A stretch of 64,000 bases of DNA from Ruminococcus sp. (lineage in GTDB: Bacteria > Bacillota > Clostridia > Oscillospirales > Ruminococcaceae): positions 1 to 64,000 of the forward strand of contig JAFXNC010000004.1 of NCBI GenBank assembly GCA_017529875.1, read 5' to 3'. A program made the position numbers and the translations under genes. Of the stretch, positions 12,133 through 59,540 are shown piece after piece (position 1 is the stretch's first letter; every line of letters starts with the position of its first letter). Under the pieces are notes generated by a model, which was given only the letters and a program-made list of their open reading frames with translations, was not told the origin of the DNA and ran no database searches.

Positions 12133-13590
12133 TTACTTCTTGTCGATGATCTCGGCGGAGCCGTCTACGCTCTCAACGTTCTCCTCAGCGGCACGCTTGA
12201 TAGCCTCCTCGCGGGACTTTTCAAGTGCGTCGGTGATGTCCTTGCCGAGGAAATCCGGCAGCTCCATACCGGCCTGCTTGAACAGGTCGCCCAGCGGAGG
12301 AACGCTCTTCATCAGACCGCTTAGAAAGTTGGCGGTAGAGCCTGAGCCGTTGCCGCTGGCACCGGAATCCCAAACGGTGATCTTGTCGATCTTGATGTTC
12401 TTGATAGCCTCAACCTGGATAGCTACCAGCTGCTCCAGCTTGTCAGCCACGATCAGCTTAACAGCTGCATCTGCATCGCCGCCGGCAGCCTGCACCAGTC
12501 TGCGCATACCTTCGGCCTGCTTGGTGAGTATCTCCTGATTACCTTTAGCCTCTGCCTCCATCTTGGCAAAGATAGCGTCCGCTTCGCCTCGTGCCTTGCG
12601 CCTTGCCACCTCGGCCTCCGCCTCTGCGGCGATCTCGGCCTGCTGCTTGGCGACCTGAGCCTTAACGATGATATCAGCCTGCTGAGTAGCTCTTTCCAGT
12701 TCGGCACGGGTACGCTCTGCTTCCTGCTGAGCAACGTAGGCTTCCTGCTTTGCCTTTGCAGCCTGAACGGCCTCGGCAGCGGTAGCCTGACGCAGAGCCT
12801 CGGCCTCTGCCTCACGGCGCTTGGCCTCGGACTGAGCGACCTCGATCTTGGCGGCGTTTTCACCGTCGATAGCGAATGCGTTGGCGGATGCTACCTGGAT
12901 ACGCTGATCCTTCTGAGCGTTGGCCTGACCGATCTCACCGTCGCGGTGTTTTTCGGCAACAGACTTCTTCGCGTCGTTGATAGCCTTGGCGGCAGCCTCT
13001 TTACCGAGAGATTCCAGATATCCGGACTCATCGGTGATATCCGTTACGTTTACGTTGATAAGTCTCAGACCGATCTTTTTCAGCTCGATCTCCACGTTGT
13101 TCGATACCGCGATCAGGAACTTGTCACGGTCGGAGTTGATCTCCTCGATGTCCATCGTTGCGATGATAAGACGGAGCTGACCGAAGATGATATCCTTTGC
13201 AAGCTCCTGCACCTCGAGCATTTTCAGTCCGAGAAGACGCTCAGCCGCGTTCTGCATAACGCCGGGCTCGGTGGAGATGCCCACCGTGAATCTCGAAGGC
13301 ACGTTGATACGGATGTTCTGCTTCGAGAGGGCGTTTTTCAGATCGACGTTGATGGAGATCGGCGTCAGATCCATGTACTGGTAGCTTTGCAGCACCGGCA
13401 CGATGAAGGCCGCGCCGCCGTGGATGCACTTGGCGCTCTTGGTCTGACCGTTCTTGTCGGTGCCGACCTTACCGTAGATGACCAGCACCTTGTCGGACGG
13501 GCACTTGCGGTACCTTGACAGTATCGCCGCGATAGCCGCGAACAATACTACTGCCACCACGCAGATGATGATGATTGTTTCAACTGGCAT
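12133..13590 (-). CDS. flotillin family protein (SPFH/band-7, YqiK/FloA-like)
   Basis: N-terminal TM; SPFH domain; long Ala/Glu/Gln-rich coiled-coil flotillin repeats. Confidence 0.9.
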   Translation of the reverse strand: MPVETIIIICVVAVVLFAAIAAILSRYRKCPSDKVLVIYGKVGTDKNGQTKSAKCIHGGAAFIVPVLQSYQYMDLTPISINVDLKNALSKQNIRINVPSRFTVGISTEPGVMQNAAERLLGLKMLEVQELAKDIIFGQLRLIIATMDIEEINSDRDKFLIAVSNNVEIELKKIGLRLINVNVTDITDESGYLESLGKEAAAKAINDAKKSVAEKHRDGEIGQANAQKDQRIQVASANAFAIDGENAAKIEVAQSEAKRREAEAEALRQATAAEAVQAAKAKQEAYVAQQEAERTRAELERATQQADIIVKAQVAKQQAEIAAEAEAEVARRKARGEADAIFAKMEAEAKGNQEILTKQAEGMRRLVQAAGGDADAAVKLIVADKLEQLVAIQVEAIKNIKIDKITVWDSGASGNGSGSTANFLSGLMKSVPPLGDLFKQAGMELPDFLGKDITDALEKSREEAIKRAAEENVESVDGSAEIIDKK

Positions 13591-13633
13591 ATTGTTTTCC
13601 TCCTTCTGTTTAAAAACAAAATTGCTCTACATT

Positions 13634-13662
13634 ATTATACAATACAAGTTACCGTATTGCAA
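13634..13662 (-). promoter_or_regulatory. sigma-70 promoter for flotillin gene (TTGCAA-17-TGTATAAT, extended -10)
   Basis: Reverse-strand reading ttgcaatacggtaacttgtattgtataat. Confidence 0.5.
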
Positions 13663-13781
13663 TATTTTTTTACGAAGATATTAACTATTGTTTGATTTGC
13701 ACAAAACCTACCGTTGAAATCTATGCACTATTTTGCGGGATTTTGTCTTGCCGTTTTATCCGGGCGGTATCGGCTGCCGGC

Positions 13782-14345
13782 TTACCTTACTATCTTATTC
13801 AGATATCTGTACGCCGCATGATCGCCCACTATCACAAAAGCATCCGGTGCCTTGGGGTCTATACATATTCTCACGGTCTGTCCCTCCCGGAGCCGCAGTT
13901 CCCGGTCGCTGACGAAACGGAAGTATTCAAGCTCCCGTTTTTTGCCGTCAAGCATCACCCGGACGGTGGGCTTATATGACACTCTGCTGTCCTGTAAATT
14001 GTGATAGGCCTTGCGCATAGGCTGGGGATCGCCGGATCTGCCCCGACTTTTTTTGAAAGCCCGCAATTCGAGCTTCTGAGTTTTCACCGCCTCAAGCCCC
14101 ACCACCTCCGCCGGGAGTATCATCCCCCGCCGGGATGCGGTCTCAAGGAGCCTGTCGCCCTCGCCGTGGAGTACGCCGCTGCGTTTGAGTCTGCTGACAA
14201 CGAGAACTGATGTTCCGATGACCAGTATTAGTGCCACTAAAATTATCATCCCATAGTAGACCAGCAGCAGAACGTGTCCCGAAAAGTGTCCCGTGGGATG
14301 CTCCTCGGCGGCACTCAGGTATGCGAAGGCGGTATCAATCCTCAC
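13782..14345 (-). CDS. membrane protein of unknown function in NfeD-flotillin operon (DUF3592-like)
   Basis: Central TM segment; overlaps NfeD-like gene by 11 nt. Confidence 0.45.
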   Translation of the reverse strand: MRIDTAFAYLSAAEEHPTGHFSGHVLLLVYYGMIILVALILVIGTSVLVVSRLKRSGVLHGEGDRLLETASRRGMILPAEVVGLEAVKTQKLELRAFKKSRGRSGDPQPMRKAYHNLQDSRVSYKPTVRVMLDGKKRELEYFRFVSDRELRLREGQTVRICIDPKAPDAFVIVGDHAAYRYLNKIVR

Positions 14346-15036
14346 GCTCTACCACCACGGTATCGCCCCGCAGATCGGTGACCCGCACCTGTGTGCCGGT
14401 CCTGATAGTTTCTTCGCCCGCCGTCACCGCGGAAAGCTCCCTGAGCTGTCCCTGCACAGTGACGTTGACCTTGCCCTCGCCCTGACCCTTTCCGGGTATG
14501 GGAATGTAGACCGTACCGGTCAGACCCAGGCAGTTGCGCACATCGAGGGTGCCGTTCTCGGCGAGCTTAGCGGAGAGCTGCACGATCTTGGCGATAGCGA
14601 ACATCACTATGAAGCCCAGCGCAAAGCCTATCGCGAAAGCCAGTCCCTGGGGCAGGCCGCCCTGTATCGCCACGATAGTCGTCCAGCTGAACACCGTCAA
14701 AAACGCCACGATGGTTTGCAGGGTGAACATCCTCATGGTGCCGAAATCCGAGGGGTTCCCGCCGTCCACCGAATGACCGCCCGCCATGTCGTGTCCGAGG
14801 GACATATCGTGCATGGCAGCTCCGGATATATCGGTATGTACGTCGAATCCGCCGTGCATCCCGCCGCCGTCGAAGTCTATGCCCGAGGTGTCGGACACAT
14901 CAAAGCCCGCGCCTCCCGCGTGTGCGCCGACGATTATCGCCAGCAGCGTTTGTATCAGCAGCAGCAGCGTCGAGGGCAGTGCTATGCAGTAGAGCACTTT
15001 AAGCACCGTGCTTAATCCTTCCCACCATTCATTCAT
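14335..15036 (-). CDS. NfeD family membrane protein (YqiJ-like, C-terminal OB-fold)
   Basis: Multi-TM N-terminus and C-terminal beta OB-fold; canonical partner placed upstream of flotillin. Confidence 0.75.
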   Translation of the reverse strand: MNEWWEGLSTVLKVLYCIALPSTLLLLIQTLLAIIVGAHAGGAGFDVSDTSGIDFDGGGMHGGFDVHTDISGAAMHDMSLGHDMAGGHSVDGGNPSDFGTMRMFTLQTIVAFLTVFSWTTIVAIQGGLPQGLAFAIGFALGFIVMFAIAKIVQLSAKLAENGTLDVRNCLGLTGTVYIPIPGKGQGEGKVNVTVQGQLRELSAVTAGEETIRTGTQVRVTDLRGDTVVVERED

Positions 15037-29106: not shown

Positions 29107-30248
29107 AAGGCAGACTGGCAGGGATGACCCTGTGCTTTATGGCAGCGTTCATAGTCCTGACGGTGGTGCTGACCCGTATCGGCAGCACCTCCGACCCCGA
29201 TTCCGGAGGACTGAAAGCCGTTGCCCTCAGCGAGATAGAACAGCTGGTGAAACAGGGCGACACCGAGGCCGCCCTCCGGGAGGCGGATAAGCTGCGAGAG
29301 CAGCTCATGCAGGAGGAGGCTCCCGCTGCCAACAACACGGCGGCTGTGCCCCTCTGCGCCGCGGGATGCGTCTTTGCAGCGGCGGTGTTCTGCTACGTCT
29401 ATTTCTCTGTGCTCAGACCCTTTGACAAGCTGAGATTCTTCGCTGCCCGCATAGCCCGGGGGGAGCTGGACGTACCTTTGGAGTACGAGCGTTCAAACTG
29501 GTTCGGGAGCTTTACATGGGCCTTCGACAGTATGCGCCGGGAGATAACCGCCGCCCGCGCCTGCGAGCGTGAGGCCATTGACAACAACAAGACGGTCATA
29601 GCAACTCTCTCCCACGATATCAAGACCCCGGTGTCCTCCATAAGAGCCTACGCAGAGGGGCTCGACGCCAACCTCGATACCTCCCCGGAGCGCCGCCGCA
29701 AGTACCTCTCTGTGATAATGCGCAAGTGCGACGAGGTCTCCCGCCTCACCAACGACCTGTTTTTGCACTCCCTGTCCGATCTGGACAGGCTGGCTGTCCA
29801 CCCGGAGCGGTTCGAGCTCATGTCCTTCATGGAGGGGGCGGTGGAGGAACTCTCCGCAGGGCAGGGGGATGTTGCTTTTATCCGAAACGACCCGGAGGCC
29901 TACATCTCCGCCGACAAAAACCGCCTGATGCAGATGACCGAAAACCTGATAAACAACGCCCGCAAGTACGCCCGCACCGATGTTACCGTCACCGCCTCAA
30001 AAGAAGACGGCTGCGCAGTCCTGCGTTTCACCGACAAAGGAAACGGCATACCCGACGGGGATATGCCGTTCATCTTCGGTAAGTTCTACCGGGGTCACAA
30101 CTGCGGCTCCGAGCCCGGTTCGGGACTGGGTCTGTACATCGTCAGGTACCTGACCGAGGCCCAGGGCGGAGAGGTGAAGCTCCGCAATATCGCCCCCCAC
30201 GGCCTTGAAGTCACAGTCAGCCTGCCCCTTACCAGCCCAGATCCATAA
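29103..30248 (+). CDS. sensor histidine kinase (intramembrane-sensing, BceS-like)
   Basis: 2 TM helices with short loop; H-box HDIKTPVSSIRAY; HATPase_c G-boxes. Confidence 0.85.
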   Translation: MKGRLAGMTLCFMAAFIVLTVVLTRIGSTSDPDSGGLKAVALSEIEQLVKQGDTEAALREADKLREQLMQEEAPAANNTAAVPLCAAGCVFAAAVFCYVYFSVLRPFDKLRFFAARIARGELDVPLEYERSNWFGSFTWAFDSMRREITAARACEREAIDNNKTVIATLSHDIKTPVSSIRAYAEGLDANLDTSPERRRKYLSVIMRKCDEVSRLTNDLFLHSLSDLDRLAVHPERFELMSFMEGAVEELSAGQGDVAFIRNDPEAYISADKNRLMQMTENLINNARKYARTDVTVTASKEDGCAVLRFTDKGNGIPDGDMPFIFGKFYRGHNCGSEPGSGLGLYIVRYLTEAQGGEVKLRNIAPHGLEVTVSLPLTSPDP

Positions 30249-30996
30249 GCCAGTTATTGAGGCTCCTTTCTCTGTCACGCATGGAGGAGGGGCCTTTGTA
30301 TTTGCCCAGGGTGTGCTCGGCCTTGATGTTGCCGTCCACGATGTAGAGTACTCTGTCGCACTTGGCGGCAACGTGGCTGTCATGGGTGACAAGCAGGATC
30401 GTGGTGCCCTCGGCGTTGAGGCGTACCAGCTCGTCGGTGACTTCCTCGGAGGAGGTGCGGTTCAGAGCGCCGGTGGGCTCGTCGGCGAAGATCATAGTCG
30501 GGGAGTTTATCATGCTCCGGGCTATGCAGGCTCTTTGCAGCTGTCCGCCGGAGACCTCGTTGATGTCGTTGTCGGCGATGTCGGAGATGCCCAGCTTCTT
30601 CATCAGCTCCTCGCCCCGGCGCTTCTTGTCGGCGCGGGAGGCGTGATCCTTTTCCGATCTCATAGCCGGCAGGATGATGTTATCCAGCAGCGAGAGGTTC
30701 TTGAGCATATACATCTGCTGAAAGATAAATCCCATTTCATCAAGGCGCAGCTCCGAGAGCTCGTCCTTTTTCAGCTTGGAGATATCTCTGCCCTTGAAGC
30801 TGACGCTGCCGGAGGTCATGCCGTCCATGCCGGAGGCGGTGTAGAGCAGGGTGGACTTGCCTGAACCCGAGGGTCCCATTACCGCGATCATCTCCCCGGC
30901 GGCCACCGAGAAGCTCACGTTTTTGAGCACGTTGTTCTGTCTTTTGTTTATGATATAGGTCTTGCAGAGATCCTTTACTTCGAGAATGGTTTCCAT
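30229..30996 (-). CDS. ABC transporter ATP-binding protein (MacB/BceA-like)
   Basis: Walker A GPSGSGKST, signature SGGQLQR, Walker B IFADEPTGALN. Confidence 0.9.
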   Translation of the reverse strand: METILEVKDLCKTYIINKRQNNVLKNVSFSVAAGEMIAVMGPSGSGKSTLLYTASGMDGMTSGSVSFKGRDISKLKKDELSELRLDEMGFIFQQMYMLKNLSLLDNIILPAMRSEKDHASRADKKRRGEELMKKLGISDIADNDINEVSGGQLQRACIARSMINSPTMIFADEPTGALNRTSSEEVTDELVRLNAEGTTILLVTHDSHVAAKCDRVLYIVDGNIKAEHTLGKYKGPSSMRDRERSLNNWLMDLGW

Positions 30997-31031
30997 AATG
31001 CTTTCCTCCGTTTATCTGTTTTAGGGGACTG

Positions 31032-33398
31032 TTATTCTATGTTAGCCGCGTCGGACGCCTTGACCGACCTGGTGTAGAGAGCCGTGAAAAATGCTCCCGC
31101 GATGACTGCCGCCAGTATTATTGCAGGGTAGACGCCGAATATCTCGGGGACGTTCAGCTCATAGCCTATGCCCTCGGAGGCGCCCATCATCCCGAAGATC
31201 GGGTCAGCTACCAGCTTGGTCAGCGGCAGGCAGAGGGCTGCGGAGAGTATCCCCGAGACCGCCGCCACCACCACGAACCGGAAGGTGTGCTGCTTGACGA
31301 TCAGCTTATCCTTGATGCCGAGAGCCTTCATCAGCGCGATCTCGGATTTCTCTTTTGCTATGAAGGAGCGCTCCATGAGCACCACGATCATTATGATTAT
31401 CAGCACCGAGATGATGAGCACCAGGTTCTTGACAGCCGCGATAGCGTCGGCGGAGTTGGTGGATTCCTTGACGAACTCGTTTGCGTTCTGAACCTTGTCG
31501 GTGCCCCAGTGCTTTTTGAGCTGCTCCTTGCGCTCTTCAATGGTCTTGGCGTCGGGGTGATCGTCAAAATCTATCTGCGCCGGGAATGTGGTGCCGGGGG
31601 TCACGTCACCGAGAGGCACATCCTGATGCAGCCTGATGACCTGTCCCAGCTGGTTCATGCTCTGGAACACCGCCGTCAGCTGGTACTCTTTGGTCTCGCC
31701 GTTTACGGTGATCTTGACCTTGTCGCCGATGTCGAAGCCGAACTTCTCGCAGATCAGGGTGGTGGCGGCAAACTCGGTCTCGCACTGAGGCGCCGTGCCC
31801 CGCTCGTATACATACTCGGAGCAGTCGGTCTCGGCGCTCCAGAGAGCCGTGATGTTCTGCCTGGTATCACCGAACTCCACCGGCACCTTGTACTGTGCCT
31901 CGATATGCACCTTTGCAGGCATACCCAGGCCGGCAAGCTCCTGCTCGATGCCGGAGCAGTGCTCCTTTATCGTAGTTACGCCGCCCAAAAGATCCATAGC
32001 GTCCTTGGCAGTGTAGTAGAGGTCGCTCTTGGTGTTGCCCAGCAGGAACAGCATCTTGTCGCTGCCGCCGAGGGTATTTGCGATGTTTGCGAACACCATC
32101 ACCAGCAGCAGGCAGAGGGCGAATACCACCGTCATTATGCTGTACTGCTTGGGGGCGGACACCACGTCGTTGACCGCAAGAAAGCCTGTTGCCGGGAGCC
32201 TGGTCTTGCCCAGGTTCATGAAGCTGCGTTTCTTGAACCGCTCGCCGGTCTGACCGTTCCTTACTGCGTCTATGGGGGAGAGTTTCTTGATCCTGCGGGT
32301 GCAGCCCCAGCAGAAGAGCATTATTATGCCCACAACCGCGATGCTGCTGAGAGCGCCGATGAGCACGGTGCTGTCGTTGCCCAGGTACATGGACTTGGAG
32401 GCGGATTCAAGCAGCAGCGCCCCGAAGGGTATGCTCGCGAAGTAGCCTATCACCGCACCGATCACCGCTATGCCAAGATACTTGGCAAGGTAGAGGCTCC
32501 TGATATGCCTGTTCTTGATGCCTATGGCCTTCATAACGCCGATCTCGCGGAATTCCTCGGCGATCGTAAAGCCTATGGTGAACCGCAGCATCACGAACGA
32601 GATAAGGATCAGCGCTATGGACACGATGAGCAGGCTGCCTGCCGTGATGATCTCTAAAACGTAGGTCATCTTTATCACGCTGTGAGCGCCGTCAAAGGCT
32701 ATGTTTGTGTCTTCCGTTACCGCTTCTTCAACGGCCTTGGTGTCGTCGGTGTCCACATAGAACACGCTGCCGCGATAGCCTGCTGCCGAGGGGTCGCCGA
32801 AGAACCTGGCGTAGTCGTTTGCGTTGAGCAGTACTCTGCCGCTGCCCATGAAGTCGGAGCCCAGCAGAGCGTCCTTGATCCTGCCCTTGTATTCAAGGGA
32901 GAGGGTGGTGCCGCCCAGGGTGAAATCCAGCTTGTCGCCCACCTTGATGCCGGAGTTTTCGGGAGCGGAGCCCGACATATAGAACCCGCCCTCGGGCACC
33001 TCGGTCAGGGGATCGTTGTCCTTGTCGAAGTAGTTTATCTTTGCTTCGTCCACCGACAGGAGCAGGATAGAGGAGTTGGAGAACTCCAAGGCCTTTTTGC
33101 CGTCCCGCGTGATCTTCTCGGCGTTGGTGTAGAGCACGCTCTCACGCCTGAACCTGTTTACTGCGGGCTCGGCTTCCAGCTTTGCGGAGAGGGTGTCGCC
33201 GTTCTTGCCGTCGATGGTGATGAAGTAGTAATCCGCCATGCCTGCCTGCTCGAAGAAGTAATCGGTGCCGCCGACTATGGTGATTATGTTGTTGACGCTG
33301 GAGGACGCGAACATCGCCGACAGTATCACGAACAGCAGCAGGATGATGTTCATGGTCTTCTTGCGCCTGATATCCTTTTTGAGTATCCGTAAAAACAT
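31032..33398 (-). CDS. ABC transporter permease with two FtsX domains (BceB-like)
   Basis: 788 aa; two 4-TM FtsX bundles, each preceded by a large extracytoplasmic domain. Confidence 0.85.
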   Translation of the reverse strand: MFLRILKKDIRRKKTMNIILLLFVILSAMFASSSVNNIITIVGGTDYFFEQAGMADYYFITIDGKNGDTLSAKLEAEPAVNRFRRESVLYTNAEKITRDGKKALEFSNSSILLLSVDEAKINYFDKDNDPLTEVPEGGFYMSGSAPENSGIKVGDKLDFTLGGTTLSLEYKGRIKDALLGSDFMGSGRVLLNANDYARFFGDPSAAGYRGSVFYVDTDDTKAVEEAVTEDTNIAFDGAHSVIKMTYVLEIITAGSLLIVSIALILISFVMLRFTIGFTIAEEFREIGVMKAIGIKNRHIRSLYLAKYLGIAVIGAVIGYFASIPFGALLLESASKSMYLGNDSTVLIGALSSIAVVGIIMLFCWGCTRRIKKLSPIDAVRNGQTGERFKKRSFMNLGKTRLPATGFLAVNDVVSAPKQYSIMTVVFALCLLLVMVFANIANTLGGSDKMLFLLGNTKSDLYYTAKDAMDLLGGVTTIKEHCSGIEQELAGLGMPAKVHIEAQYKVPVEFGDTRQNITALWSAETDCSEYVYERGTAPQCETEFAATTLICEKFGFDIGDKVKITVNGETKEYQLTAVFQSMNQLGQVIRLHQDVPLGDVTPGTTFPAQIDFDDHPDAKTIEERKEQLKKHWGTDKVQNANEFVKESTNSADAIAAVKNLVLIISVLIIIMIVVLMERSFIAKEKSEIALMKALGIKDKLIVKQHTFRFVVVAAVSGILSAALCLPLTKLVADPIFGMMGASEGIGYELNVPEIFGVYPAIILAAVIAGAFFTALYTRSVKASDAANIE

Positions 33399-33410
33399 TT
33401 TTGCTTCTCC

Positions 33411-33707
33411 TTACTTTTTCAGCTTTGCCCTTACCGTCAGTATTACAAGTACCGCTGCGCTGACTTTGAGGATCACCTTCGACTGCCTCTTTATCTCGTC
33501 GGAGATCAGCTTCATCATGGCTTTCCTGATCTTCTCGCCCTCAGCGGCGCCGCAGCCGGCTGTCTCAGCGATATCCCCGGCGATGAGGGCCTGTTCCTTC
33601 TTCGAGAAGATGTTCCTCTCGTCGATGCATCCCAGCACCTTCATGGCTGTCTCTCTGTCAAGTCCTGTCTGTTCTGAAAGTCTCTTAGCGAATGTGTTCT
33701 TTGTCAT
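33411..33707 (-). CDS. small protein with HTH-like N-terminus and C-terminal TM helix, first gene of the permease operon
   Basis: Start at internal ATG MTKNTFAKRLSEQTGLDRETAMKVL...; C-terminal KVILKVSAAVLVILTV hydrophobic helix; ends 12 nt before the permease start. Confidence 0.4.
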   Translation of the reverse strand: MTKNTFAKRLSEQTGLDRETAMKVLGCIDERNIFSKKEQALIAGDIAETAGCGAAEGEKIRKAMMKLISDEIKRQSKVILKVSAAVLVILTVRAKLKK

Positions 33708-33846
33708 GGCTGTTGTCTCCTTTCTTTTGTCCTGCGGGTCGTTTCCTTTACTGTGGTTTAAGTATAACACGGGAATTATTAAATAATCCTTAAATGCCGC
33801 AAACCCCTGAACAGCGCGGTTTGGACGGCTCATCTATTGACAGGCA

Positions 33847-33875
33847 GGGAGGAAAATGTTATAATTATTACGATG
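33847..33875 (+). promoter_or_regulatory. perfect-consensus sigma-70 promoter TTGACA-17-TATAAT reading into the repeat region
   Basis: ttgacaggcagggaggaaaatgttataat. Confidence 0.6.
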
Positions 33876-33888
33876 CACTATCACGTTT

Positions 33889-33951
33889 GTGCGCGGTAAC
33901 GCGCCTATACTCAATTATTTATTATTCTCTTTTTATATAAGATGTAGAGGC
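33889..33951. repeat. leader-like block A1 (GC hairpin GCGCGGTAACGCGC + TATACT + AT-rich + TTATAAGATGTAGAGGC)
   Basis: About 75% identical to block A2 at 34059-34131. Confidence 0.7.
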
Positions 33952-34058
33952 TTGTCATTTTGCCAAGGTAAGGTTGTCATTTTGCCAAGGTAAGGTTGTC
34001 ATTTTGCCAAGGTAAGCTTGTCATTTTGCCAAGGTAAGGTTGTCATTTTGACAAGGTC
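33952..34058. repeat. tandem array 1: 4.8 spacer-less copies of 22-bp unit TTGTCATTTTGCCAAGGTAAGG
   Basis: Units at 33952, 33974, 33996 (one substitution), 34018 and 34040 (degenerate). Confidence 0.95.
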
Positions 34059-34131
34059 GTGCGCGGTCACGCGCCTATACTCATAGATAGTTTCTTATAT
34101 TCTTTCTTATAAGATGTAGGCAGTCCATTTT
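34059..34131. repeat. leader-like block A2 (GCGCGGTCACGCGC hairpin ... TTATAAGATGTAGGC)
   Basis: Paralogous to A1. Confidence 0.7.
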
Positions 34132-34133
34132 TT

Positions 34134-34232
34134 GGATAGGGGTAGTCTAAAAACTGGATAGGGTAGTCTATTATTTGGATAGGGTAGTCTATTATTTGGA
34201 TAGGGCAGTCTATTATTTGGATAGGGCAGTCC
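34134..34232. repeat. tandem array 2: about 4.6 spacer-less copies of 21-22-bp unit GGATAGGGTAGTCTATTATTT
   Basis: Units at 34134, 34156, 34177, 34198 (G>C variant) and 34219 (partial). Confidence 0.95.
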
Positions 34233-34415
34233 GAATAACAGACAGGGTACGCGGTACTATTCACTGACGCCTCTCACTTATATCCGGAAAAGGGCAAAAA
34301 GTTGCACGCGAACGTGCAACCGACAAGTCAGATGACCGGGCTGTAACAGCTCAACAGGGTAAAAAATTACTCACTTAGCCTGAATATACAATAATTGTGC
34401 ATTGAAAAAGGAGGA

Positions 34416-35060
34416 ATGACCGTGACCAGGAAAGAAAAAGCCCTCGCAGTCTGCGACAGGCTGGAGGAAAAATACCCCGACGCCATATGCTCCCTTACAT
34501 ATGATAAGCCCCATGAGCTGATGATCGCCGGAAGGCTCTCGGCGCAGTGCACCGACGAGCGGGTCAATATCGTCACCAAAGAGCTTTTTGCCAAGTACCG
34601 CTCCATCGACGACTTCGCCGCCGCCGACGTCAGGGATATCGAGGAGATAATACGTCCCTGCGGCCTCTACAAGACCAAGGCTCAGTCCCTGGTGGGGATG
34701 TGCAAGGCCATAAACGAGCGCTTCGGCGGGCAGATACCCGATACCATAGAAGAGCTCACCACCCTCCCGGGCATAGGCCGCAAGACCGCCAACCTCATCA
34801 TCGGGGACGTCTTCGGCAAGCCCGCCGTCGTCACCGACACCCACTGCATACGCATCACGGGAAGGCTGGGTCTGACATCCAACACCGACCCCGTGAAAGT
34901 TGAGACAGATCTGCGAAAGATACTCCCCCCGGAGCGTTCCGGCGACCTGTGCCACAGGCTGGTGCTTTTCGGCAGGGAGGTCTGCAAAGCCCGGGGCGAG
35001 CGGTGCGATGCCTGCCCCCTTCAAGACCTGTGTTCTGCCTATAAAAAGAAGAAGTCCTGA
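34416..35060 (+). CDS. nth: endonuclease III (DNA-(apurinic or apyrimidinic site) lyase)
   Basis: HhH-GPD motif LPGIGRKTANLI and 4Fe-4S C-x6-C-x2-C-x5-C cluster; start ATG 34416 or GTG 34422. Confidence 0.9.
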   Translation: MTVTRKEKALAVCDRLEEKYPDAICSLTYDKPHELMIAGRLSAQCTDERVNIVTKELFAKYRSIDDFAAADVRDIEEIIRPCGLYKTKAQSLVGMCKAINERFGGQIPDTIEELTTLPGIGRKTANLIIGDVFGKPAVVTDTHCIRITGRLGLTSNTDPVKVETDLRKILPPERSGDLCHRLVLFGREVCKARGERCDACPLQDLCSAYKKKKS

Positions 35061-38791: not shown

Positions 38792-40010
38792 GGCTAAAAG
38801 AGATCTGATCGTGACAGCGGTCGCCTCGCTGATCGTTATCATGATGTTTTCCATATTCCATCTGGTGAAGCTGATAAACGATTCCTCCAAGGAGCAGATC
38901 AAGGTGGGCTTCGTTTACGACAGCGACGAGAGCACCCCCTACACCGCCAATTTCATCAAGGCGCAGAAGGCTCTTGAACGTCAGCTGGGCAGCAAGGTGG
39001 TAACGGTGGTCAAGTCCAACATCTACGACAGGGACGGCGGCAAAAAGGCCGTCAGCGAGCTGGTCAACGAGGGCTGCGACCTCATCTTCACCACCAGTAT
39101 AGGTTACAGCAAGGCCGCCAAGGAATATGCCGAGCAGTACCCGGACATACAGTTCTGCCAGGCCACCGGCGACAATGCCGGCACCGAGCCGGTGCTGGAC
39201 AATTATCATACCTTCATGGGCGAGATCTATCAGGGCAGATACATCTCAGGCGCCATAGCCGGCATGAAGCTGCGAGAGCTCATCGACAGCGGCAGGATCT
39301 CCCCTGACAAGGCCAGGATCGGCTATGTGGCAGCCTACGAGACGGCTGAGGTCATCTCGGGATATACGGCCTTCCTGCTTGGCGTCAGGTCTGAGGCGCC
39401 CGAGGCGGTCATGGAGGTCATGTACACCAACACCTGGTCGAGCTACGCCGTGGAGAAGAAGTGCGCCAAGCAGCTCATCGCCGACGGCTGCGTCGTGATC
39501 TCACAGCACTCCGATACCACAGGCCCTGCGGTGGCCTGCGAGGAAGCCCAGAACGTCTACCATGTGGGCTACAACCAGAGCATGATCGACGTGGCGCCCA
39601 CCACCTCCATAATAAGCTCCTGCATCAACTGGACCCCCTACATAGTCAGCGCCAGCGAGGCAGTCCTTGCGGGAAAGCGCATCGAGGACTATGTACAGGG
39701 CGACGAGAACGGCAACGACCTGGGAGCGGGCTTTGACCTGGACTGGGTACAGATGCTGGAGCTCAACTCTCTCATAGCCGCCGAGGGCAGCGCCGACAAG
39801 ATCACGGAGCTCACCGACAAGTTCAAGGACGGCTGGAACGAGGTCTTCAAGGGCAGCTACACCGGTGTTGACCCCACCGATCCCAACAAGACCATAGACC
39901 TGAGCGGAGGCTACACCGAGAACGAGCACTCATCCGCGCCGACCTTCTGCTACGTCCTGAATGACGTCATCACCATAGTCGAACAAGAAACGGATGCGCG
40001 GATTCGCTAA
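38781..40010 (+). CDS. BMP/PnrA/Med family ABC-type substrate-binding protein homologue, membrane-anchored
   Basis: Start ATG 38781 overlaps the HD-GYP gene stop by 11 nt; N-terminal TM; BMP-family periplasmic-binding fold. Confidence 0.75.
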   Translation: MTSEAKRDLIVTAVASLIVIMMFSIFHLVKLINDSSKEQIKVGFVYDSDESTPYTANFIKAQKALERQLGSKVVTVVKSNIYDRDGGKKAVSELVNEGCDLIFTTSIGYSKAAKEYAEQYPDIQFCQATGDNAGTEPVLDNYHTFMGEIYQGRYISGAIAGMKLRELIDSGRISPDKARIGYVAAYETAEVISGYTAFLLGVRSEAPEAVMEVMYTNTWSSYAVEKKCAKQLIADGCVVISQHSDTTGPAVACEEAQNVYHVGYNQSMIDVAPTTSIISSCINWTPYIVSASEAVLAGKRIEDYVQGDENGNDLGAGFDLDWVQMLELNSLIAAEGSADKITELTDKFKDGWNEVFKGSYTGVDPTDPNKTIDLSGGYTENEHSSAPTFCYVLNDVITIVEQETDARIR

Positions 40011-40047
40011 AAGAAGAAAGAATAAAGAAAAAAGAATAAAGAATAAT

Positions 40048-40110
40048 TAAGGAGTCCGCTTTGCGGACGATTTTAAAAATCATCGCCGAAGGCGATACCT
40101 TAATTATTCT
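40048..40110. terminator. bidirectional terminators (GTCCGCtttGCGGAC and ATCGCCgaaGGCGAT) embedded in an approximately 35-bp AT-rich inverted repeat
   Basis: Arms gaaagaataaagaa...aataattaagg / ccttaattattctttattctt around two short GC hairpins. Confidence 0.65.
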
Positions 40111-40137
40111 TTATTCTTTATTATTCTTCTTTATTCT

Positions 40138-40620
40138 TTACAGCGTCAGCGGCATAAGAAGGCATACTGCCGTGGCGGAAATGCCGAGGCGCTCTCCCGT
40201 GAAGCCAAGGCCTTCCTCTGTGGTGGCCTTCACCGAGATCCGGGAGATATCTGTACCGCAGGCTCTGGCGATGTTCTCCCGCATCTGCATGATGTGGGGG
40301 GCGAGCTTCGGTGCCTGAGCACAGACTGTTGAGTCGATGTTGCCGATCTCATAGCCGGCCTCTCTGACCCTGCGCACCACCTCGGTCATGAGCAGGAGGC
40401 TGTCAGCGCCCCTGTAACGCTCGTCGCTGTCGGGGAACAGCTTTCCGATATCCCCCATAGCCGCCGCACCGAGGAGCGAATCCATAATTGCGTGGGCGAG
40501 AACGTCCGCGTCGGAGTGACCCAGCAGCCCCAGGGTGTGAGGTATATCCACGCCCCCAAGGATCAGCTTTCTGCCCTCTGCAAGCCTGTGTACGTCGTAG
40601 CCGTGACCTATCCGAAACAT
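40138..40620 (-). CDS. ispF: 2-C-methyl-D-erythritol 2,4-cyclodiphosphate synthase
   Basis: GHGYDVHRL...GHSDADV... conserved IspF motifs, 160 aa. Confidence 0.95.
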
Positions 40621-54555: not shown

Positions 54556-54827
54556 ACCTATTCTCCTTTCTTAATGGGGGGATACCCCCGGTTTGGGGCG
54601 GCGTTCACATGGCTGTGACATAATATATCATTCTAATTATAATACAAAAGCGGTGGAATGTCAAGGATCGGATAAGCGTAATTATTCTCCCTGCCGTCCG
54701 GAAAGCGTCGGATTTTTTCGGAAAAGATGCACATTTGCGTGCAACTTTTCGGATTTTTCCCGCTATAAGTGAAAGAGGTCGTGATGCTGTGAACAAAACA
54801 GGGTCGTACAAGCAGCCAATGCAGCAT

Positions 54828-54905
54828 TGTACATACGTACAAGGCAGGGTTGGCCGTACATACAAGGCAGGGTTGGTCATACGTACAAGGCAGGGTCGTA
54901 CAAAC
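54828..54905. repeat. tandem array 3: about 3.5 copies of a 22-23-bp unit (CGTACATACAAGGCAGGGTTGG), preceded by a block homologous to 34240-34370
   Basis: Units cattgtacatacgtacaaggcagggttgg, ccgtacatacaaggcagggttgg, tcatacgtacaaggcagggtcg and partial tacaaacatcc; upstream 'ccggaaaag...tgcac...gcgtgcaac' and 'gctgtgaacaaaacagggt' match locus 1. Confidence 0.85.
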
Positions 54906-55229
54906 ATCCATCTCCACATATTAATAAAAAGATAACAAAAAAGATAACAGAAAAGAAGACAGTAAGCGCTTTGCGCCGCACACATCCGAAGAAGTCAGGG
55001 CATATTGCAAAGAACGCAGCGGCAGGGTGTTTGGCTGTCCGGGCTGACAATGCTCATGCATTGACATTTGTAGAATACCCAAATAGAAACTTAGGCAATT
55101 AGCAGTATCAATCCGACAAGAAAATGCTACCAATATGAACATAGTCTCTTAACATAGGGCTATGTTCATTTCTTTTTCAGCTGATTGACTTTTCAATCCA
55201 CAGGTGAACTTGCAAACTTACAAAGTTAT

Positions 55230-55258
55230 TTGCATATATGATAAAGATGTGCTATAAT
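55230..55258 (+). promoter_or_regulatory. sigma-70 promoter TTGCAT-17-TATAAT for first sigma-fusion gene
   Basis: ttgcatatatgataaagatgtgctataat. Confidence 0.55.
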
Positions 55259-55343
55259 TTATTTTACACAGACTGAACCTTTTACCCAAATTCTCCGACT
55301 ATATAAATGAAAGCGCTTTCAATTACAAATCAGAGGTGAGGAT

Positions 55344-56600
55344 ATGAGCGAATTTGAAATGCTGGTTAGTGAACACCGTGGTGCGGTCGAGCGGTATGTG
55401 CGGTTCAATATTCCGACTAAGGCTGACAGCGATGACGTTTTGCAGGAGGTATGGCTGGCGGCATACAGACAGTTTGACAAACTGCTGAACAAAAGCAGCT
55501 TTAAGGCTTGGGTCATAGGGATAGCCCGTCACAAGGTCAAGGACTATTTCCGCAGCAGGCGTGATACGCTCGGCATTGATGAACTGCCCGAGAGCGAGCT
55601 TGTTCAAAGCCGTTACGGACTTGTGGAGTATTTGCCTGTTCACGAGACTATAGAGTGTCTGAACGAAAATGATAAGCAGATACTCAGGCTTTACTACTTT
55701 GAGAATATGCCGCAGAACGAGATAGCGGACAGGCTCGGCATACCGCTCGGAACGGTCAAAAGCCGCTTGAACACCGCAAGACGCAATTTCAAAAACGCAT
55801 ACCCATATCCGCCGAAAGGAGAAGATACTATGTTTAAGCTACCGAAAACTATGCCCGAATACAAGATCATTCCCAGCGACAAAGAGCCATTTGCGGTCAA
55901 GTGGGAGGAGCTTATGGGCTGGTTTATCGTCCCGAAGATAGGTGAAAAGCTGACTTGGGCTATCTACGACCAGCCGTCCCGCAAGGGTGATTATTTCTAC
56001 GAAATGGAGGTCATCGGCAAGGCAGAGATACACGGCGTAGAGGGCGTTGAAATAATCGCTAAAGAGGGCAATTTTGATAAGACACAGCCCTGCACCGAAC
56101 GCAGATTTGTGGCACAGCTTACCGATACACATTGCCGTTATCTTGCCGAAAGCCATGTTGTGAACGGCGTAAGGAAGCTGTACACCTTCCTTGACGGTGA
56201 CGCATTCCTGCCTAACTGGGGCTACGGCGAGGACAACTGCGGAAATGAAATAATTATTTCGCCAAAGGGGATAATCGTTAAAAAGGGCAACGAAATAACT
56301 GTAAATAGTGAGAAAGCTCCGCTTGACATAGTCGGCAGATACACAGTTGAGATAAATGGCAAGACCTATGATGCCGTTTGTGTTATTGATGTCGGGACAT
56401 ATAATGAAGGTGTCCTCAGCGAGCAGTTTCTTGACAAGAACGGCAGAACGATCTTATGGCGCAGGTTCAACCGCAACGATTGGGAGTTTGACCGCTACGG
56501 CAAGCTGTGGACAGAGGCTCTGCCCGACAATGAGAGACTTTCAGTCAACGGTGAGACGTATGTGCATTGGTATGATTGTGTGAGTGATTATATTTTTTAA
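55344..56600 (+). CDS. ECF-type sigma-70 family factor (regions 2 and 4) fused to an approximately 250-aa beta-rich C-terminal domain
   Basis: Sigma-70 r2 (VLQEVWLAAYRQFDK) and r4 (MPQNEIADRLGIPLGTVKSRL); no TM segment; no separate anti-sigma gene. Confidence 0.7.
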   Translation: MSEFEMLVSEHRGAVERYVRFNIPTKADSDDVLQEVWLAAYRQFDKLLNKSSFKAWVIGIARHKVKDYFRSRRDTLGIDELPESELVQSRYGLVEYLPVHETIECLNENDKQILRLYYFENMPQNEIADRLGIPLGTVKSRLNTARRNFKNAYPYPPKGEDTMFKLPKTMPEYKIIPSDKEPFAVKWEELMGWFIVPKIGEKLTWAIYDQPSRKGDYFYEMEVIGKAEIHGVEGVEIIAKEGNFDKTQPCTERRFVAQLTDTHCRYLAESHVVNGVRKLYTFLDGDAFLPNWGYGEDNCGNEIIISPKGIIVKKGNEITVNSEKAPLDIVGRYTVEINGKTYDAVCVIDVGTYNEGVLSEQFLDKNGRTILWRRFNRNDWEFDRYGKLWTEALPDNERLSVNGETYVHWYDCVSDYIF

Positions 56601-56606
56601 AAGTAA

Positions 56607-56645
56607 GCGGCATACCTGCCTTGTGCGGGTATGCCTTTTTCTTGC
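56607..56645 (+). terminator. rho-independent terminator after sigma-fusion 1
   Basis: GCGGCATACCtgccttgtgcGGGTATGCC + TTTTT; near-identical hairpin repeated at 58371-58405. Confidence 0.7.
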
Positions 56646-56670
56646 ATAAAAAAATAAATTATGGTATAAT
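56642..56670 (+). promoter_or_regulatory. sigma-70 promoter TTGCAT-17-TATAAT for second sigma-fusion gene
   Basis: ttgcataaaaaaataaattatggtataat. Confidence 0.55.
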
Positions 56671-56736
56671 AAAACCCACCAAACCTTCCGCTCATTTCTG
56701 CGACTAATAAGTGAAGCTTCAAAAAGAGGTGCGCCT

Positions 56737-58362: not shown

Positions 58363-58370
58363 ATACTGAT

Positions 58371-58405
58371 TTGCGGCATACCTGCATTGGTGGGTATGCC
58401 GCATT
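58371..58405 (+). terminator. rho-independent terminator after sigma-fusion 2
   Basis: GCGGCATACCtgcattggtgGGTATGCCGC. Confidence 0.6.
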
Positions 58406-58561
58406 ACTATCATCAAGTCCTTGGAGCGAGTCTGAGGGCTTTTTCTTATCAGCGGATAGATTCCCCCATAATCTTCATGAACGGCTCTGAGGGGCTTTCC
58501 CGTTCGCCGCAAGGCATAGCAAAAGCGAGCTACCATTTTCGATAACTCTCTCCGCTGATAA

Positions 58562-58768
58562 TTATTCGTCTGAACACTCGTCAAGCCCGTGTATGAGCTG
58601 AATATAAATGCACTCTGCTCGTTCACGTTCCTCGTCCTCGGCGGTCATCATCATTTCAAGGAAATATGCCTTTGCCTGTTCGTAGTCAGTCCAGACCTCA
58701 TGCCTGCCGTTGCAGACGGTAGTGACCTTGCGTGTTCTCGGCATTGCCAATTCAGGTGTTTTCAACAT
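58562..58768 (-). CDS. small hypothetical protein (about 68 aa) of the island
   Basis: Start at internal ATG MLKTPELAM...; acidic C-terminus; no recognisable family. Confidence 0.35.
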   Translation of the reverse strand: MLKTPELAMPRTRKVTTVCNGRHEVWTDYEQAKAYFLEMMMTAEDEERERAECIYIQLIHGLDECSDE

Positions 58769-58903
58769 AGCTGTGTACCTCCAAATCATTATTATAGATA
58801 CATTATATACTGCAATCACGCAGGAGTCCAGCGTTGGTGAGAAACTGTAATAATCTTTGTGCAGGGCGCAGCAATAAAAGCATTTCCTCGGTGCATTTTT
58901 CTC

Positions 58904-59311
58904 CTATTTCTTTACGTCCTCGTGAGCCTTATCAACTATCGCTCTGAACGTCTGCGGTGTCACGGCAAAGCGTCCCAACTTTGCCTGATACTCTGCAAGT
59001 CTTGCGGATATTTCCTCAACTCCCTGACGTATTTCCTGCAAATCTTCGGGATAAATATTTCCTGTCTGATTGACCTGAATTGCTATGGAATTTATGCGGT
59101 CAGCAATCTCTTTGAATCTTGCCTTTTCGGGTGCAAGCTCCTCGTCCGTCAACTCAATTATGGGAGTGGCGATAATAGAGTTAAAAATATATTCCGACAT
59201 CGAGCGCAGACCGCTTTCCTCCGTGTACTGTTTCAGCTTGGCAAACTCCTTGTCATTCAAGCGGACTTTCAGCACCTTTGACTTCCGTTCCTCGTCCGAT
59301 TTTACATTCAT
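58904..59311 (-). CDS. MobC-like plasmid mobilisation relaxosome accessory protein
   Basis: KVLKVRLNDKEFAKLKQYTEESGLRSMSEYIFNSII matches the MobC ribbon-helix-helix-like N-terminal signature. Confidence 0.5.
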   Translation of the reverse strand: MNVKSDEERKSKVLKVRLNDKEFAKLKQYTEESGLRSMSEYIFNSIIATPIIELTDEELAPEKARFKEIADRINSIAIQVNQTGNIYPEDLQEIRQGVEEISARLAEYQAKLGRFAVTPQTFRAIVDKAHEDVKK

Positions 59312-59469
59312 AAACAAACCTCCAAAATCTTAGTATTCGCCCATTTTTATTATCTATTATATCACTTTTTCTTTCATAAATCAAGCGGGGTCTTAGGGGT
59401 GCAAAACCCTCTAACAAGCTCCTGTATTCAGGGTGGTCATTTTTCAAAATGTACCCCATGAATACCGTG

Positions 59470-59540
59470 CTTGCTGGGTTTGAAAGCCAGCGCATATTGT
59501 GAACTTGTGTACACAATATGCAGAGCTTGCTGGGTTTGAT
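59470..59540. repeat. oriT/att-like element: direct repeats GCTTGCTGGGTTTGA flank a 10-bp perfect inverted repeat GCATATTGTG-N11-CACAATATGC that contains the palindrome TGTGTACACA
   Basis: Read directly from the sequence upstream of the MobC-like gene. Confidence 0.6.

Follow-up and report, generated by a model that had tools for sequence, protein, structure and literature searches.

Repeat cassettes resembling orphan phage-type replication origins in the chromosome of a rumen Ruminococcus-like bacterium

The replication origin of phage lambda combines iterons with an AT-rich tract (PMC7466680). Lambdoid phages are excluded when a plasmid carries the ori-lambda iterons and transcription takes place nearby, and the lambda "inhibition phenotype" requires the iterons as well as transcription of a neighbouring small RNA (PMC3349717). 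Lactococcal Per is likewise an origin-based form of phage interference (PMC3445015). In the Per and ori-lambda systems, replication of a phage is affected in trans by copies of its origin that are carried without the rest of the phage, and these copies are multicopy or plasmid-borne. Rep_3-type theta origins (pCI305 family) consist of an AT-rich stretch and 3.5 copies of a 22-bp iteron. The ParR-type centromere parC of pSK41 contains four contiguous 20-bp repeats that are coated cooperatively by a small DNA-binding protein, and pneumococcal BOX elements (boxA-(boxB)n-boxC) carry a tandem middle module between conserved ends.

We analyzed a DNA stretch of 64,000 nt, termed the window in the following, from Ruminococcus sp. 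(GCA_017529875.1, contig JAFXNC010000004.1, positions 1-64,000), in which three non-coding cassettes are located amid ordinary genes on the chromosome of a Ruminococcus-like bacterium from the rumen. The cassettes have a common anatomy, with a unit of 21-23 bp directly repeated three to six times, a tract of 40-56 bp with 75-85% AT and a short GC palindrome; judged by sequence, this anatomy matches an iteron-type origin without its initiator gene. As in lambdoid and SPP1-type origins, three to six direct repeats of approximately 19-24 bp, near two helical turns and with internal dyad symmetry, are combined with an adjacent AT-rich tract and with predicted transcription entering from a nearby promoter, and phage arrays with the same cores and period occur in O-like/DnaD-like genes. 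Unlike those origins, the cassettes are non-coding, chromosomal, devoid of an initiator gene and known here from sequence alone, and two of them stand in tandem with different units. With a probability of roughly 0.4, we read them as orphan phage-type origin cassettes whose phased repeats would be bound, as DNA, by an initiator coming from elsewhere and acting in trans. The region at 34 kb may, with the same tentative confidence, be a lineage-specific non-coding insertion built from parts of phage replication modules.

The other systems differ from the cassettes in several respects. With the Per and ori-lambda copies they would share the presence of a phage-type origin without the phage; in contrast to these, they would be a natural, single-copy and chromosomal version with a merely proposed interference. 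Rep_3-type origins have the 22-bp unit, the 3.5-5 contiguous copies and the neighbouring AT-rich stretch in common with them; the cassettes, however, are chromosomal, have no rep gene downstream and adjoin a phage-type promoter module. Contiguous repeats of about 20 bp are also found in ParR-type centromeres, but no parM/parR or other partition operon is present beside the arrays. Like BOX, the cassettes are modular intergenic elements with a repeated middle and conserved ends at more than one locus; copies of BOX share boxB, whereas each array here has its own unit and two loci are known in the approximately 84 kb examined.

Cassettes 1 and 2 occupy a 714-nt intergenic region between a divergent Bce-like transporter operon and nth, which encodes endonuclease III. 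A perfect sigma-70 promoter (TTGACA-17-TATAAT, 12/12 matches, with a TG extension) on the plus strand faces the cassettes and nth and falls within the lineage-specific segment. The original prediction recognized this promoter and let it start at 33847; its true site is 33837-33865, 10 nt further to the left. GC palindrome 1 (GCGCGGTAACGCGC, 33891-33904) is followed by AT-rich tract 1 (33905-33951), which has 85% AT over positions 33906-33945 compared to 45% in the window, and whose 3' end TATAAGATGTAGAGGC is a degenerate edge copy of the repeat unit (68% copy). Array 1 (33952-34057, plus strand) is made up of the 22-bp unit TTGTCATTTTGCCAAGGTAAGG, a near-palindrome of the form TTGTCA-N3-TGcCAA, and TRF agrees with the predicted 4.8 copies (33952-34057, period 22, 96% match, score 198).

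Cassette 2 starts with GC palindrome 2 (GCGCGGTCACGCGC, 34061-34074) and AT-rich tract 2 (34075-34118, 79% AT, 3' end TATAAGATGTAGG), which lead into array 2 (34119-34246, plus strand). A tandem array of 21-22-bp units had been predicted and is indeed present, but its copy number was given as 4.6; TRF reports 5.2 copies with a period of 21 (34122-34231, score 155), and about six units of 21-22 bp are counted when the degenerate edge copies are included. The core GGATAGG-G(C/T)AGTC(C/T) is kept in these units, whereas a 7-nt AT-rich spacer varies. Behind array 2, a degenerate third copy of the palindrome block (GTACGCGGTAC, 34247-34257) and the expected perfect 20-bp hairpin GTTGCACGcgaaCGTGCAAC (34301-34320) were found. 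The blocks flanking arrays 1 and 2 are approximately three-quarters identical (~75%), as described before, and share GTGCGCGGTnACGCGCCTATACTCA (two matches versus zero expected) and TATAAGATGTAG. Their former description as leaders is better replaced by a GC palindrome plus a tract of 75-85% AT, the two elements that accompany the repeats in an iteron-type origin.

The spacer-less arrangement with a period of two helical turns and the homogenisation of the units within each array were both borne out. When 30 dinucleotide shuffles of the window were scored with TRF for periods of at least 15, the maximum score was 68, in comparison to 105-198 for the three real arrays. CRISPR, which had been rejected from the beginning, was ruled out, since the units lie head-to-tail without spacers and Cas domains were absent from the scanned window proteins.

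The third cassette is located at 54.73-54.98 kb. A relation between this locus and the 34 kb region had been proposed and is real: a related palindrome (54726-54745) and a homologous tail of about 55 nt are present at both, and the 54.7 kb locus in addition contains a repeat array and a leader-like block on the minus strand. Array 3 (54800-54910 with its degenerate flanking copies, plus strand) comprises three copies of the 23-bp unit TTGGTCATACGTACAAGGCAGGG (54827-54896), in which the core TACAAGGCAGGGTTG is kept. It is followed by the A/T- and purine-rich tract 3 (54911-54965, 75% AT), including 2.6 copies of the 12-nt repeat AAAAAGATAACA (54926-54956), and by GC palindrome 3 (GCGCTTTGCGC, 54966-54976). 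Since unit 1 resembles unit 3 (16 of 22 positions alike on the plus strand, p ~0.003), the earlier description of the units as completely different does not hold; unit 2 has only a short (A/G)GG-T-(T/A)-GTC core in common with units 1 and 3, a similarity that is not significant. The end modules are common to both loci, and the units differ in each array. Cassette 3 is flanked by galT on one side and on the other by a 7-kb mobile island carrying a serine recombinase, the insertion point of which is approximately 100-180 bp away. The island is missing in one strain; cassette 3 is intact at this empty site and is therefore not part of the island. No further cassette was detected in 20 kb of added flank.

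Both loci carry a module that we named P(pal), defined by the pattern GTTGCACG-N4-CGTGCAAC-TTTT-N14-TATwwr-TGrrAGG with fixed spacing and a 20-bp palindrome. The copy at 34 kb (34320-34270, minus strand) consists of the palindrome at 34301-34320, an 18-nt spacer opening with a T run, TATAAG (34282-34277) and TGAGAGG (34276-34270), and it points into array 2. The end block with the hairpin, previously regarded as a trailer, is instead a P(pal) copy reading toward the arrays on the opposite strand. The second copy (54726-54778, plus strand; GATGCACATTTGCGTGCAAC, 18 nt, TATAAG, TGAAAGAGG) points into array 3. Entry into the arrays is thus predicted from P(pal) on one side and, at 34 kb, from the sigma-70 promoter on the other; the orientation of the units relative to P(pal) is opposite in cassettes 2 and 3. 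Both window copies fit the pattern, which retrieved 98 metagenome stretches, and over 15 viral loci carry P(pal) as well. The left-half GTT, although not demanded by the search pattern, was kept in at least 80% of the 47 distinct sequences. P(pal) is a real family and constitutes a widespread, conserved putative promoter/operator module of phage operons.

In uncultured gut phages, P(pal) lies directly 5' of terS (PHROG_51; L011, 7e-7; L017, 2e-5). It was likewise detected directly upstream of a primase/helicase gene, of a holin-like ORF with an endolysin next to it, of an SSB-like gene (product read by eye, not by profile scan) and of a Phage_rep_org_N gene (1e-19). Within the latter gene, 21-nt iterons precede purine-rich repeats of 12 nt, an arrangement that is also seen in cassette 3. 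The P(pal) phage loci L024 and L011 gave no cultured-phage match. A cos or pac site was ruled out for the palindrome because primase, SSB, lysis and replication genes have P(pal) in front of them as well. A plain intrinsic terminator (8-bp stem and T run) is a possible overlay and is insufficient, since it leaves the sequence conservation of both arms and the fixed TAT 18 nt downstream unexplained. Non-coding regions with P(pal), repeats and AT-rich sequence also adjoin host-like genes in other gut bacteria (L100 and the L031 group). At L100, P(pal) is followed by repeats forming a long hairpin that ends in a T run, resembling a small-RNA gene, and short repeats, both direct and inverted, lie beside a strain-variable region at the L031-type locus.

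Exact 18-mers of units 1 and 2 were absent from viral contigs; since no phage with exactly these units was found, no cognate initiator is named. Phage arrays were defined by two copies of the core AAGGTTGTCA or AGGGTAGTC 10-16 nt apart, and eleven such arrays were inspected with PHROGs. Five are located within O-like/DnaD-like initiator genes (L151, 1e-24; L161, 2e-25; L147, 2e-16; L152; L140), and two adjoin an initiator or DnaB-like helicase gene (L150, L153). One further locus, L157, is non-coding, contains several arrays with related cores, heads a sigma/helicase/primase module and shares AGGGTAGTCTAT with the cassette arrays. The recurrence of the cores in phage iterons shows the class of the arrays and not a specific kinship, because most tandem repeats of 20-24 bp in phage genomes belong to origins. 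The AT-rich tract of the cassettes sits on the other side of the iterons than in L151 and L156. In 0.95 Mb of fetched loci, phased core chains were found in the same species only, and a comparison of blocks and arrays with all fetched loci yielded matches for the tail alone.

Iteron origins are characterized by a directly repeated unit of 17-24 bp, present at least three times and phased at about two helical turns, an adjacent AT-rich tract and a cognate initiator gene in or beside the iterons. All three arrays have such repeats and adjoin a tract of 40-56 bp with 85%, 79% and 75% AT, respectively; a cognate initiator gene was found in or beside the iterons of neither locus. Pfam searches of the flanking genes and most window ORFs revealed no initiator, helicase-loader or other mobile-element gene near either locus, and no transposase or tyrosine integrase near the cassettes. 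Eight phage replication-gene products, seven of them with initiator/replisome-organiser matches, were compared with the window by tblastn and found nothing (E > 0.6). By BLASTN, the region matched none of the INPHARED phages or PLSDB plasmids. The block motif GCGCGGTNACGCGCCTATAC was absent from viral contigs and had a single, probably chance match in a scan of GTDB genomes, in an Acidobacteriota MAG. DnaA boxes with up to one mismatch were not present near the arrays.

In the preferred reading, the arrays would bind an O-like/DnaD-like initiator (replisome organiser) that is provided in trans by a phage or prophage, and binding would build an O-some-like complex beside the easily melted tract. 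Transcription through the site would help, and the initiator would then either be titrated, resulting in phage interference, or drive local replication on behalf of the phage. Protein binding, a cognate initiator acting in trans, transcription and a consequence for phage or host are the steps that we infer. A kept core next to a variable spacer in arrays 2 and 3 fits binding sites; where the units vary, changes are not compensated in a way that would keep a hairpin intact. Several points speak against this reading: the missing initiator gene, the unit orientation that differs relative to P(pal) between cassettes 2 and 3, the AT-rich tract on the other side than in L151 and L156, the better-than-shuffled folding of the plus-strand RNA, and the poor titration of a protein to be expected from one copy on the chromosome. 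Three roles had originally been offered, of which iteron-like protein-binding arrays are favoured by the comparative evidence, and a repeat RNA or recombination scars are possible and less supported.

Five other independent metagenome assemblies contain the whole 714-nt region with 100% identity and unchanged copy numbers, which excludes the assembly artefact that had been considered. Variation in copy number between strains, suggested as a comparison at the outset, was not seen in these assemblies. Cassette 3 is identical in three assemblies. The matching assemblies are very close kin from the same strain lineage, and since all available strains are identical, they provide no evolutionary test of constraint. 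At the orthologous loci of the closest available relatives (87% and 79%), the 34 kb element is absent; in these relatives, the transporter operon is present together with its own promoter region (window positions 33735-33805), and the arrays are missing. Synteny via nth homologues was not conserved. The element sits on an inversion junction, and nth, which lost its operon promoter after the inversion, is now faced by the inserted consensus promoter.

Absence from relatives, the position at the inversion junction and the promoter facing nth are also compatible with an inert relic or selfish mosaic repeat, in which decayed prophage replication fragments were brought in by rearrangement, repeats were expanded by slippage or unequal crossing-over, and the function would be at most that of a promoter for nth. 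Identical inner copies and degenerate edges are as predicted for unequal exchange, and no partner gene was found. However, three cassettes at two loci have the same full three-part anatomy together with P(pal) and no coding debris, and the pattern of core versus spacer in arrays 2 and 3 suggests constraint. Moreover, six assemblies agree in sequence and in copy numbers, in spite of the instability that is usual for perfect tandem repeats, and analogous non-coding loci exist in other species. We consider a relic possible though unlikely; it is the alternative that survives best.

It is rather improbable that the arrays specify a repeat-bearing non-coding RNA transcribed from the 33837 promoter and/or P(pal), which could, for example, hold an RNA-binding protein as a sponge or scaffold or form a long structured leader of nth. 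The perfect plus-strand promoter upstream and the P(pal) modules pointing into arrays 2 and 3 would fit such an RNA, as would the hairpin repeats behind P(pal) at L100, and the plus-strand RNA folds with -142 kcal/mol compared to -116 for shuffles (z = -4.3). In contrast, RNA read from either P(pal) copy is no more structured than expected (z = -1.6, -1.0), differences between copies do not keep a hairpin, and the unit orientation flips relative to P(pal) between cassettes. A search of the whole window with Rfam 15 at the gathering threshold gave no match, no intrinsic terminator was found to bound the arrays, the window contains no complementary targets of the units, and phage arrays of this kind sit within coding genes and act as DNA. 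The window also contains no tRNA or tmRNA.

Other candidates were tried and rejected. In type III toxin-antitoxin systems (ToxIN/CptIN/TenpIN), tandem RNA repeats of approximately 34-46 nt are followed by a terminator and a toxin gene; here, the units have 21-23 nt, a terminator is missing and the downstream gene encodes endonuclease III. A 65-aa ORF (34067-34264, minus strand) preceded by an SD-like GAGAGG runs in frame through array 2 with a 7-codon period; coding is not the common function, given a period of 22 in array 1 and of 23 in array 3. Resemblances to parS, LexA boxes, CsrA (GGA) sites and anti-SD sequences did not fit in spacing or motif.

Control of the divergent transporter operon and nth by an OmpR-type Bce-like response regulator or a LytTR-type factor, with the arrays as host regulatory sites, is very improbable. 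The arrays lie between divergent operons, the adjoining Bce-like module includes an OmpR-type response regulator and a histidine kinase, and direct repeats spaced 21-22 bp are typical of LytTR and OmpR-family sites. Such sites would be conserved with the regulated operon, but the relatives keep operon and promoter region without arrays; moreover, cassette 3 lies beside unrelated genes (galT and the mobile island), and five to six near-identical 22-bp copies far exceed the usual number for such regulators. Least probable of all are arm-type or accessory sites of a recombinase or transposase at rearrangement junctions (att remnants or Tn7/Mu-like ends), since the inversion junction at 34 kb, the nearby island insertion point at cassette 3 and the strain-variable region at the L031-type locus are set against a cassette 3 that is intact in the empty-site strain, the lack of a transposase or tyrosine integrase nearby, serine recombinases that are not known to use arm-type arrays, and an other inversion breakpoint (HK/ABC, 30229-30248) without such sequence.

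Within the preferred reading of orphan origin cassettes, it is a long shot that they are natural chromosomal decoys of phage origins, which would sequester or misdirect an incoming initiator or let the phage amplify a host locus. Each array would then imitate the iterons bound by the replisome organiser of another phage, and the phage's own promoter/operator module would switch on or open the cassettes. This would amount to a heritable, protein-free and sequence-specific interference that evolves by replacement of repeat units.

P(pal) is a usable result even if the arrays are inert: it heads most operons in one uncultured gut Oscillospiraceae phage group and is found in host chromosomes, too. 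The orphan origin-like cassettes likewise provide a recognisable signature that is usable even if they are inert, as short-read assemblies break at them and confusion with CRISPR-like or RNA repeats is easy. Should a phage initiator be bound by the arrays in trans, they would represent a protein-free chromosomal element interfering with or exploiting phage replication, an interference so far known only from engineered or plasmid-borne origin copies.

The region 33600-34700 was read directly and analyzed with TRF, which showed two adjoining arrays without spacers, as the original prediction had described. Array 1 (33952-34057) contains 4.8 copies of the 22-bp unit TTGTCATTTTGCCAAGGTAAGG (unit 1; 96% match, score 198) and array 2 (34122-34231) 5.2 copies of a 21-bp unit (unit 2; score 155); with degenerate edge copies, array 2 covers 34119-34246, about six units. 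In 30 dinucleotide shuffles of the window, all repeats with a period of at least 15 scored 68 or less. The blocks preceding the two arrays, predicted to be about 75% alike, have about three-quarters identity and share GTGCGCGGTnACGCGCCTATACTCA, a motif with two matches against zero expected, and TATAAGATGTAG. The "leader" before each array is better parsed as an AT-rich tract plus a GC palindrome. The perfect TTGACA-17-TATAAT promoter exists, with a TG extension, but is located at 33837-33865, 10 nt further left than predicted; the terminal perfect hairpin GTTGCACGcgaaCGTGCAAC was found at 34301-34320. The region is no assembly artefact: five further metagenome assemblies, all independent, have the whole 714-nt intergenic stretch at 100% identity and with equal array copy numbers. 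One short-read contig ends within array 2.

The proposed relation to 54.7 kb was borne out as well, since cassette parts recur at 54.73-54.98 kb (cassette 3). A palindrome related to the 34-kb hairpin lies at 54726-54745, the cassette tail is homologous to 34262-34320, array 3 (54827-54896) consists of three copies of a 23-bp unit (unit 3), and a leader-like block on the minus strand comprises a GC palindrome (54966-54976), a T-rich tract and ATATGTGGAGATGG. The unit is inverted relative to its flanking blocks. Units 1 and 3 (plus strand) are alike at 16/22 positions, which is significant (p ~0.003, cyclic shuffles); unit 2 has only a short (A/G)GG-T-(T/A)-GTC core in common with both. Three further assemblies have an identical cassette 3, and from one of these the adjacent low-GC island is missing. 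No further cassettes were found in twenty additional kb beyond the window. About 4 kb past its right end (locus L167, 14469-14537; L-numbers denote fetched loci), a 26-nt x2.7 repeat represents partial duplications of an intrinsic terminator 5' arm between convergent aconitase-C and aminotransferase genes and is unrelated to the cassettes. Short arrays of AAAGAAT (x5.3) and TTATTCT (x5.4), inverted to each other, lie at 40010-40140 between convergent Bmp-like and ispF (YgbB) genes and together would make a long AT-rich hairpin; AAAGAAT recurs in L167.

The cassettes are adjoined by a palindrome and promoter-like module, termed P(pal) here. Viral contigs were scanned with the palindrome, yielding 7 and 10 loci. 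Aligned in proper orientation, the viral matches and both window copies have a common layout: GTTGCACG-N4-CGTGCAAC, TTTT, 14 nt, TAT(A/T)(A/T)(G/A) and TG(A/G)(A/G)AGG. A metagenome scan with this layout, requiring the left arm only as GCAC, returned 98 stretches; the left-arm GTT was conserved in at least 80% (47 distinct sequences) although the search did not demand it, and the dyad is therefore real. The window copies read into array 2 (34320 to 34270, minus strand) and array 3 (54726-54778, plus strand). The genes immediately behind P(pal) include small terminase genes (PHROG_51; L011, 7e-7; L017, 2e-5), further ones having weaker PHROG_51 scores and being homologous to one another. It also directly precedes a primase/helicase gene (3e-141), a gene with an SSB-like product (judged by eye), a holin-like ORF followed by an endolysin, and a Phage_rep_org_N replisome-organiser gene (1e-19). 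Across the window copies and loci L007-L120, P(pal) is a conserved module, which in uncultured gut phages stands at the start of operons for terS, lysis, replisome organiser, primase and SSB. None of these loci has a match among cultured phages, a literature search on the motif gave nothing relevant, and no Rfam family was found. A packaging site was ruled out, because P(pal) heads several different operons. Past the dyad, TAT follows at a fixed 18 nt, then a Shine-Dalgarno-like run and a start codon, which fits a promoter with a dimer-binding operator, centred near -41.5, that would lie over its -35 region.

P(pal) also occurs beside host genes. In other gut bacteria, non-coding P(pal) with element-specific short repeats and an AT-rich TATAGAGAGG-like tract lies beside host-like genes, as in the L031 group and in L100, where a Fic gene is on one side and a rarA-like gene on the other. 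In L092 (245-790), a 118-nt GC-rich block with internal 18-nt repeats is present on both sides of one copy, upstream of an ORF resembling a small terminase (by eye), and in L077 (3150-3480) two tandem copies face the hsp20 gene 3' end. The window holds two perfect 12/12 sigma-70 consensus promoters, each near a cassette: 33837-33865 (plus) and 54636-54664 (minus), the latter driving galT about 60 nt from the palindrome. The same pairing with P(pal) was seen in L011 and L007.

Read from P(pal), each cassette runs from the iteron-like array through an AT-rich tract (40-55 bp, 75-85% AT versus 45% in the window) to a short GC palindrome (GCGCGGTAACGCGC, GCGCGGTCACGCGC or GCGCTTTGCGC). In the L024 phage group, the P(pal)-driven replisome-organiser gene carries 21-nt iterons (x2.3) directly followed by 12-nt purine-rich repeats, the same order as in cassette 3, whose AT-rich tract contains 12-nt purine-rich repeats. 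Both the cassettes and this gene match the classical lambdoid origin, where an AT-rich tract borders the iterons (PMC7466680). Viral scans for two copies of the core AAGGTTGTCA or AGGGTAGTC, 10-16 nt apart, gave 15 and 16 loci; nearly all AGGGTAGTC matches are true tandem arrays (20-24 bp), as are about half of the AAGGTTGTCA matches, the remainder reading as repeats inside coding sequence. Eleven arrays, picked by eye as clear tandem arrays, were examined with PHROGs. Initiator genes of the O-like or DnaD-like kind contain five of them: L151 (1e-24, with a DnaB-like helicase downstream, 7e-119), L161 (2e-25), L147 (2e-16, with a primase/helicase downstream), L152 and L140. Another two lie next to a gene for an initiator-like protein or a DnaB-like helicase (L150, L153), and for three the neighbours are uninformative. 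The remaining one, L157, is non-coding and has AGGGTAGTCTAT in common with unit 2; its several arrays, whose units are related yet distinct (21 nt x7.5, 31 nt x3.6, 23 nt x5.9), precede a sigma/helicase/primase module, making L157 the closest analogue of a locus with many arrays and related cores. In its non-coding region (12300-14909) there are at least five different arrays, perfect or nearly so (21-, 31-, 23-, 16- and 32-nt units), and (TTAC)x19, and a TAGTCTA core recurs in several units. Since initiator genes make up a few per cent of a phage genome, this is a strong enrichment for the array class, while a specific kinship of the cores is no more than possible. Exact 18-mers of units 1 and 2 were sought in viral contigs, and no cognate phage was found.

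We tentatively propose, as the best-supported reading and with a probability of about 0.4, that the cassettes are orphan phage-type origins, offering phased DNA sites to an O-like or DnaD-like initiator acting in trans. It is somewhat unlikely that they are instead an inert relic or a selfish mosaic repeat, a reading favoured by the lacking partner gene (no initiator gene or fragment was detectable in the window) and by lineage specificity. The organism belongs to a Ruminococcus/Oscillospiraceae lineage from ruminant gut samples, and the flanking genes are nearly all ordinary chromosomal ones (Bce-like permease, ATPase, response regulator, kinase; endonuclease III; HD-GYP protein; galT; cell-envelope enzymes). 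Of the relatives available, the two closest (permease identity 87% and 79%) have small gene-permease-ATPase-RR-HK-nth on one strand; arrays, palindrome and the 33837 promoter are absent from both, and only 33735-33805, the operon's own promoter region, is conserved. Because the arrays are absent and the gene order differs there, the element (~33.81-34.33 kb) is lineage-specific and located at an inversion junction; the inserted consensus promoter now faces nth. All assemblies of the species are identical, because exact-protein look-ups find only near-clonal strains.

Relative to the closest relatives (L132, L135), the segment with small gene, FtsX permease and ABC ATPase (30229-33707) is inverted, and a tail-to-tail overlap of 20 nt (30229-30248) now exists between the HK and ATPase ORFs. 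The small gene (33411-33707, minus strand), preceding the Bce-like permease, encodes a 98-aa protein with a hydrophobic C-terminus and a weak N-terminal HU/IHF-like match (Pfam E 3.6e-4, below cut-off); it is probably unrelated to the arrays, since the array-less 87% relative has a small gene at the same position (103 aa, L132).

A repeat RNA is improbable: the plus strand folds with z = -4.3, but the strands read from P(pal) give only -1.6 and -1.0, no Rfam match was obtained, no terminator bounds the arrays, and no variation preserves structure. Changes between copies of arrays 2 and 3 are not compensatory and do not preserve a hairpin; a 14-15 nt core is kept and the AT-rich spacer varies, as would be expected of phased protein-binding sites. 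A 65-aa ORF (34067-34264, minus strand) begins with GTG 5 nt past the GAGAGG (SD-like) of P(pal) and stays in frame across array 2, giving DCPIQII/DYPIQII heptad repeats. Given the periods of 22 and 23 in the other arrays, this ORF is probably spurious.

Sites for a host regulator are very unlikely, as they are missing from relatives which retain the operon. Recombination sites, suggested by the inversion junction and the nearby island, are the least probable, since cassette 3 is intact at the empty island site. The island genes (55.08-62.2 kb, ~100-180 bp past cassette 3) are the only mobile-element genes in the window; its absence from one otherwise identical strain (L123, L168) indicates a recently mobile element. 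Low in GC (about 45%) and ~7 kb long (~55080-62250), the island carries two sigma-70-like paralogs, each with a long extension at the C-terminus (55344-56600, 56737-58362), a MobC/NikA-like gene and the gene of a large serine recombinase (60556-62172).

As orphan origins, the arrays would act at the DNA level, an O-like or DnaD-like initiator supplied in trans binding beside an easily melted tract that would be fed by transcription. The outcome may be titration of the initiator, local firing or no effect. Titration of a phage initiator is not without precedent, as lambdoid phages are excluded by plasmid-borne origin copies acting in trans, provided that the iterons come with a neighbouring transcript (PMC3349717).
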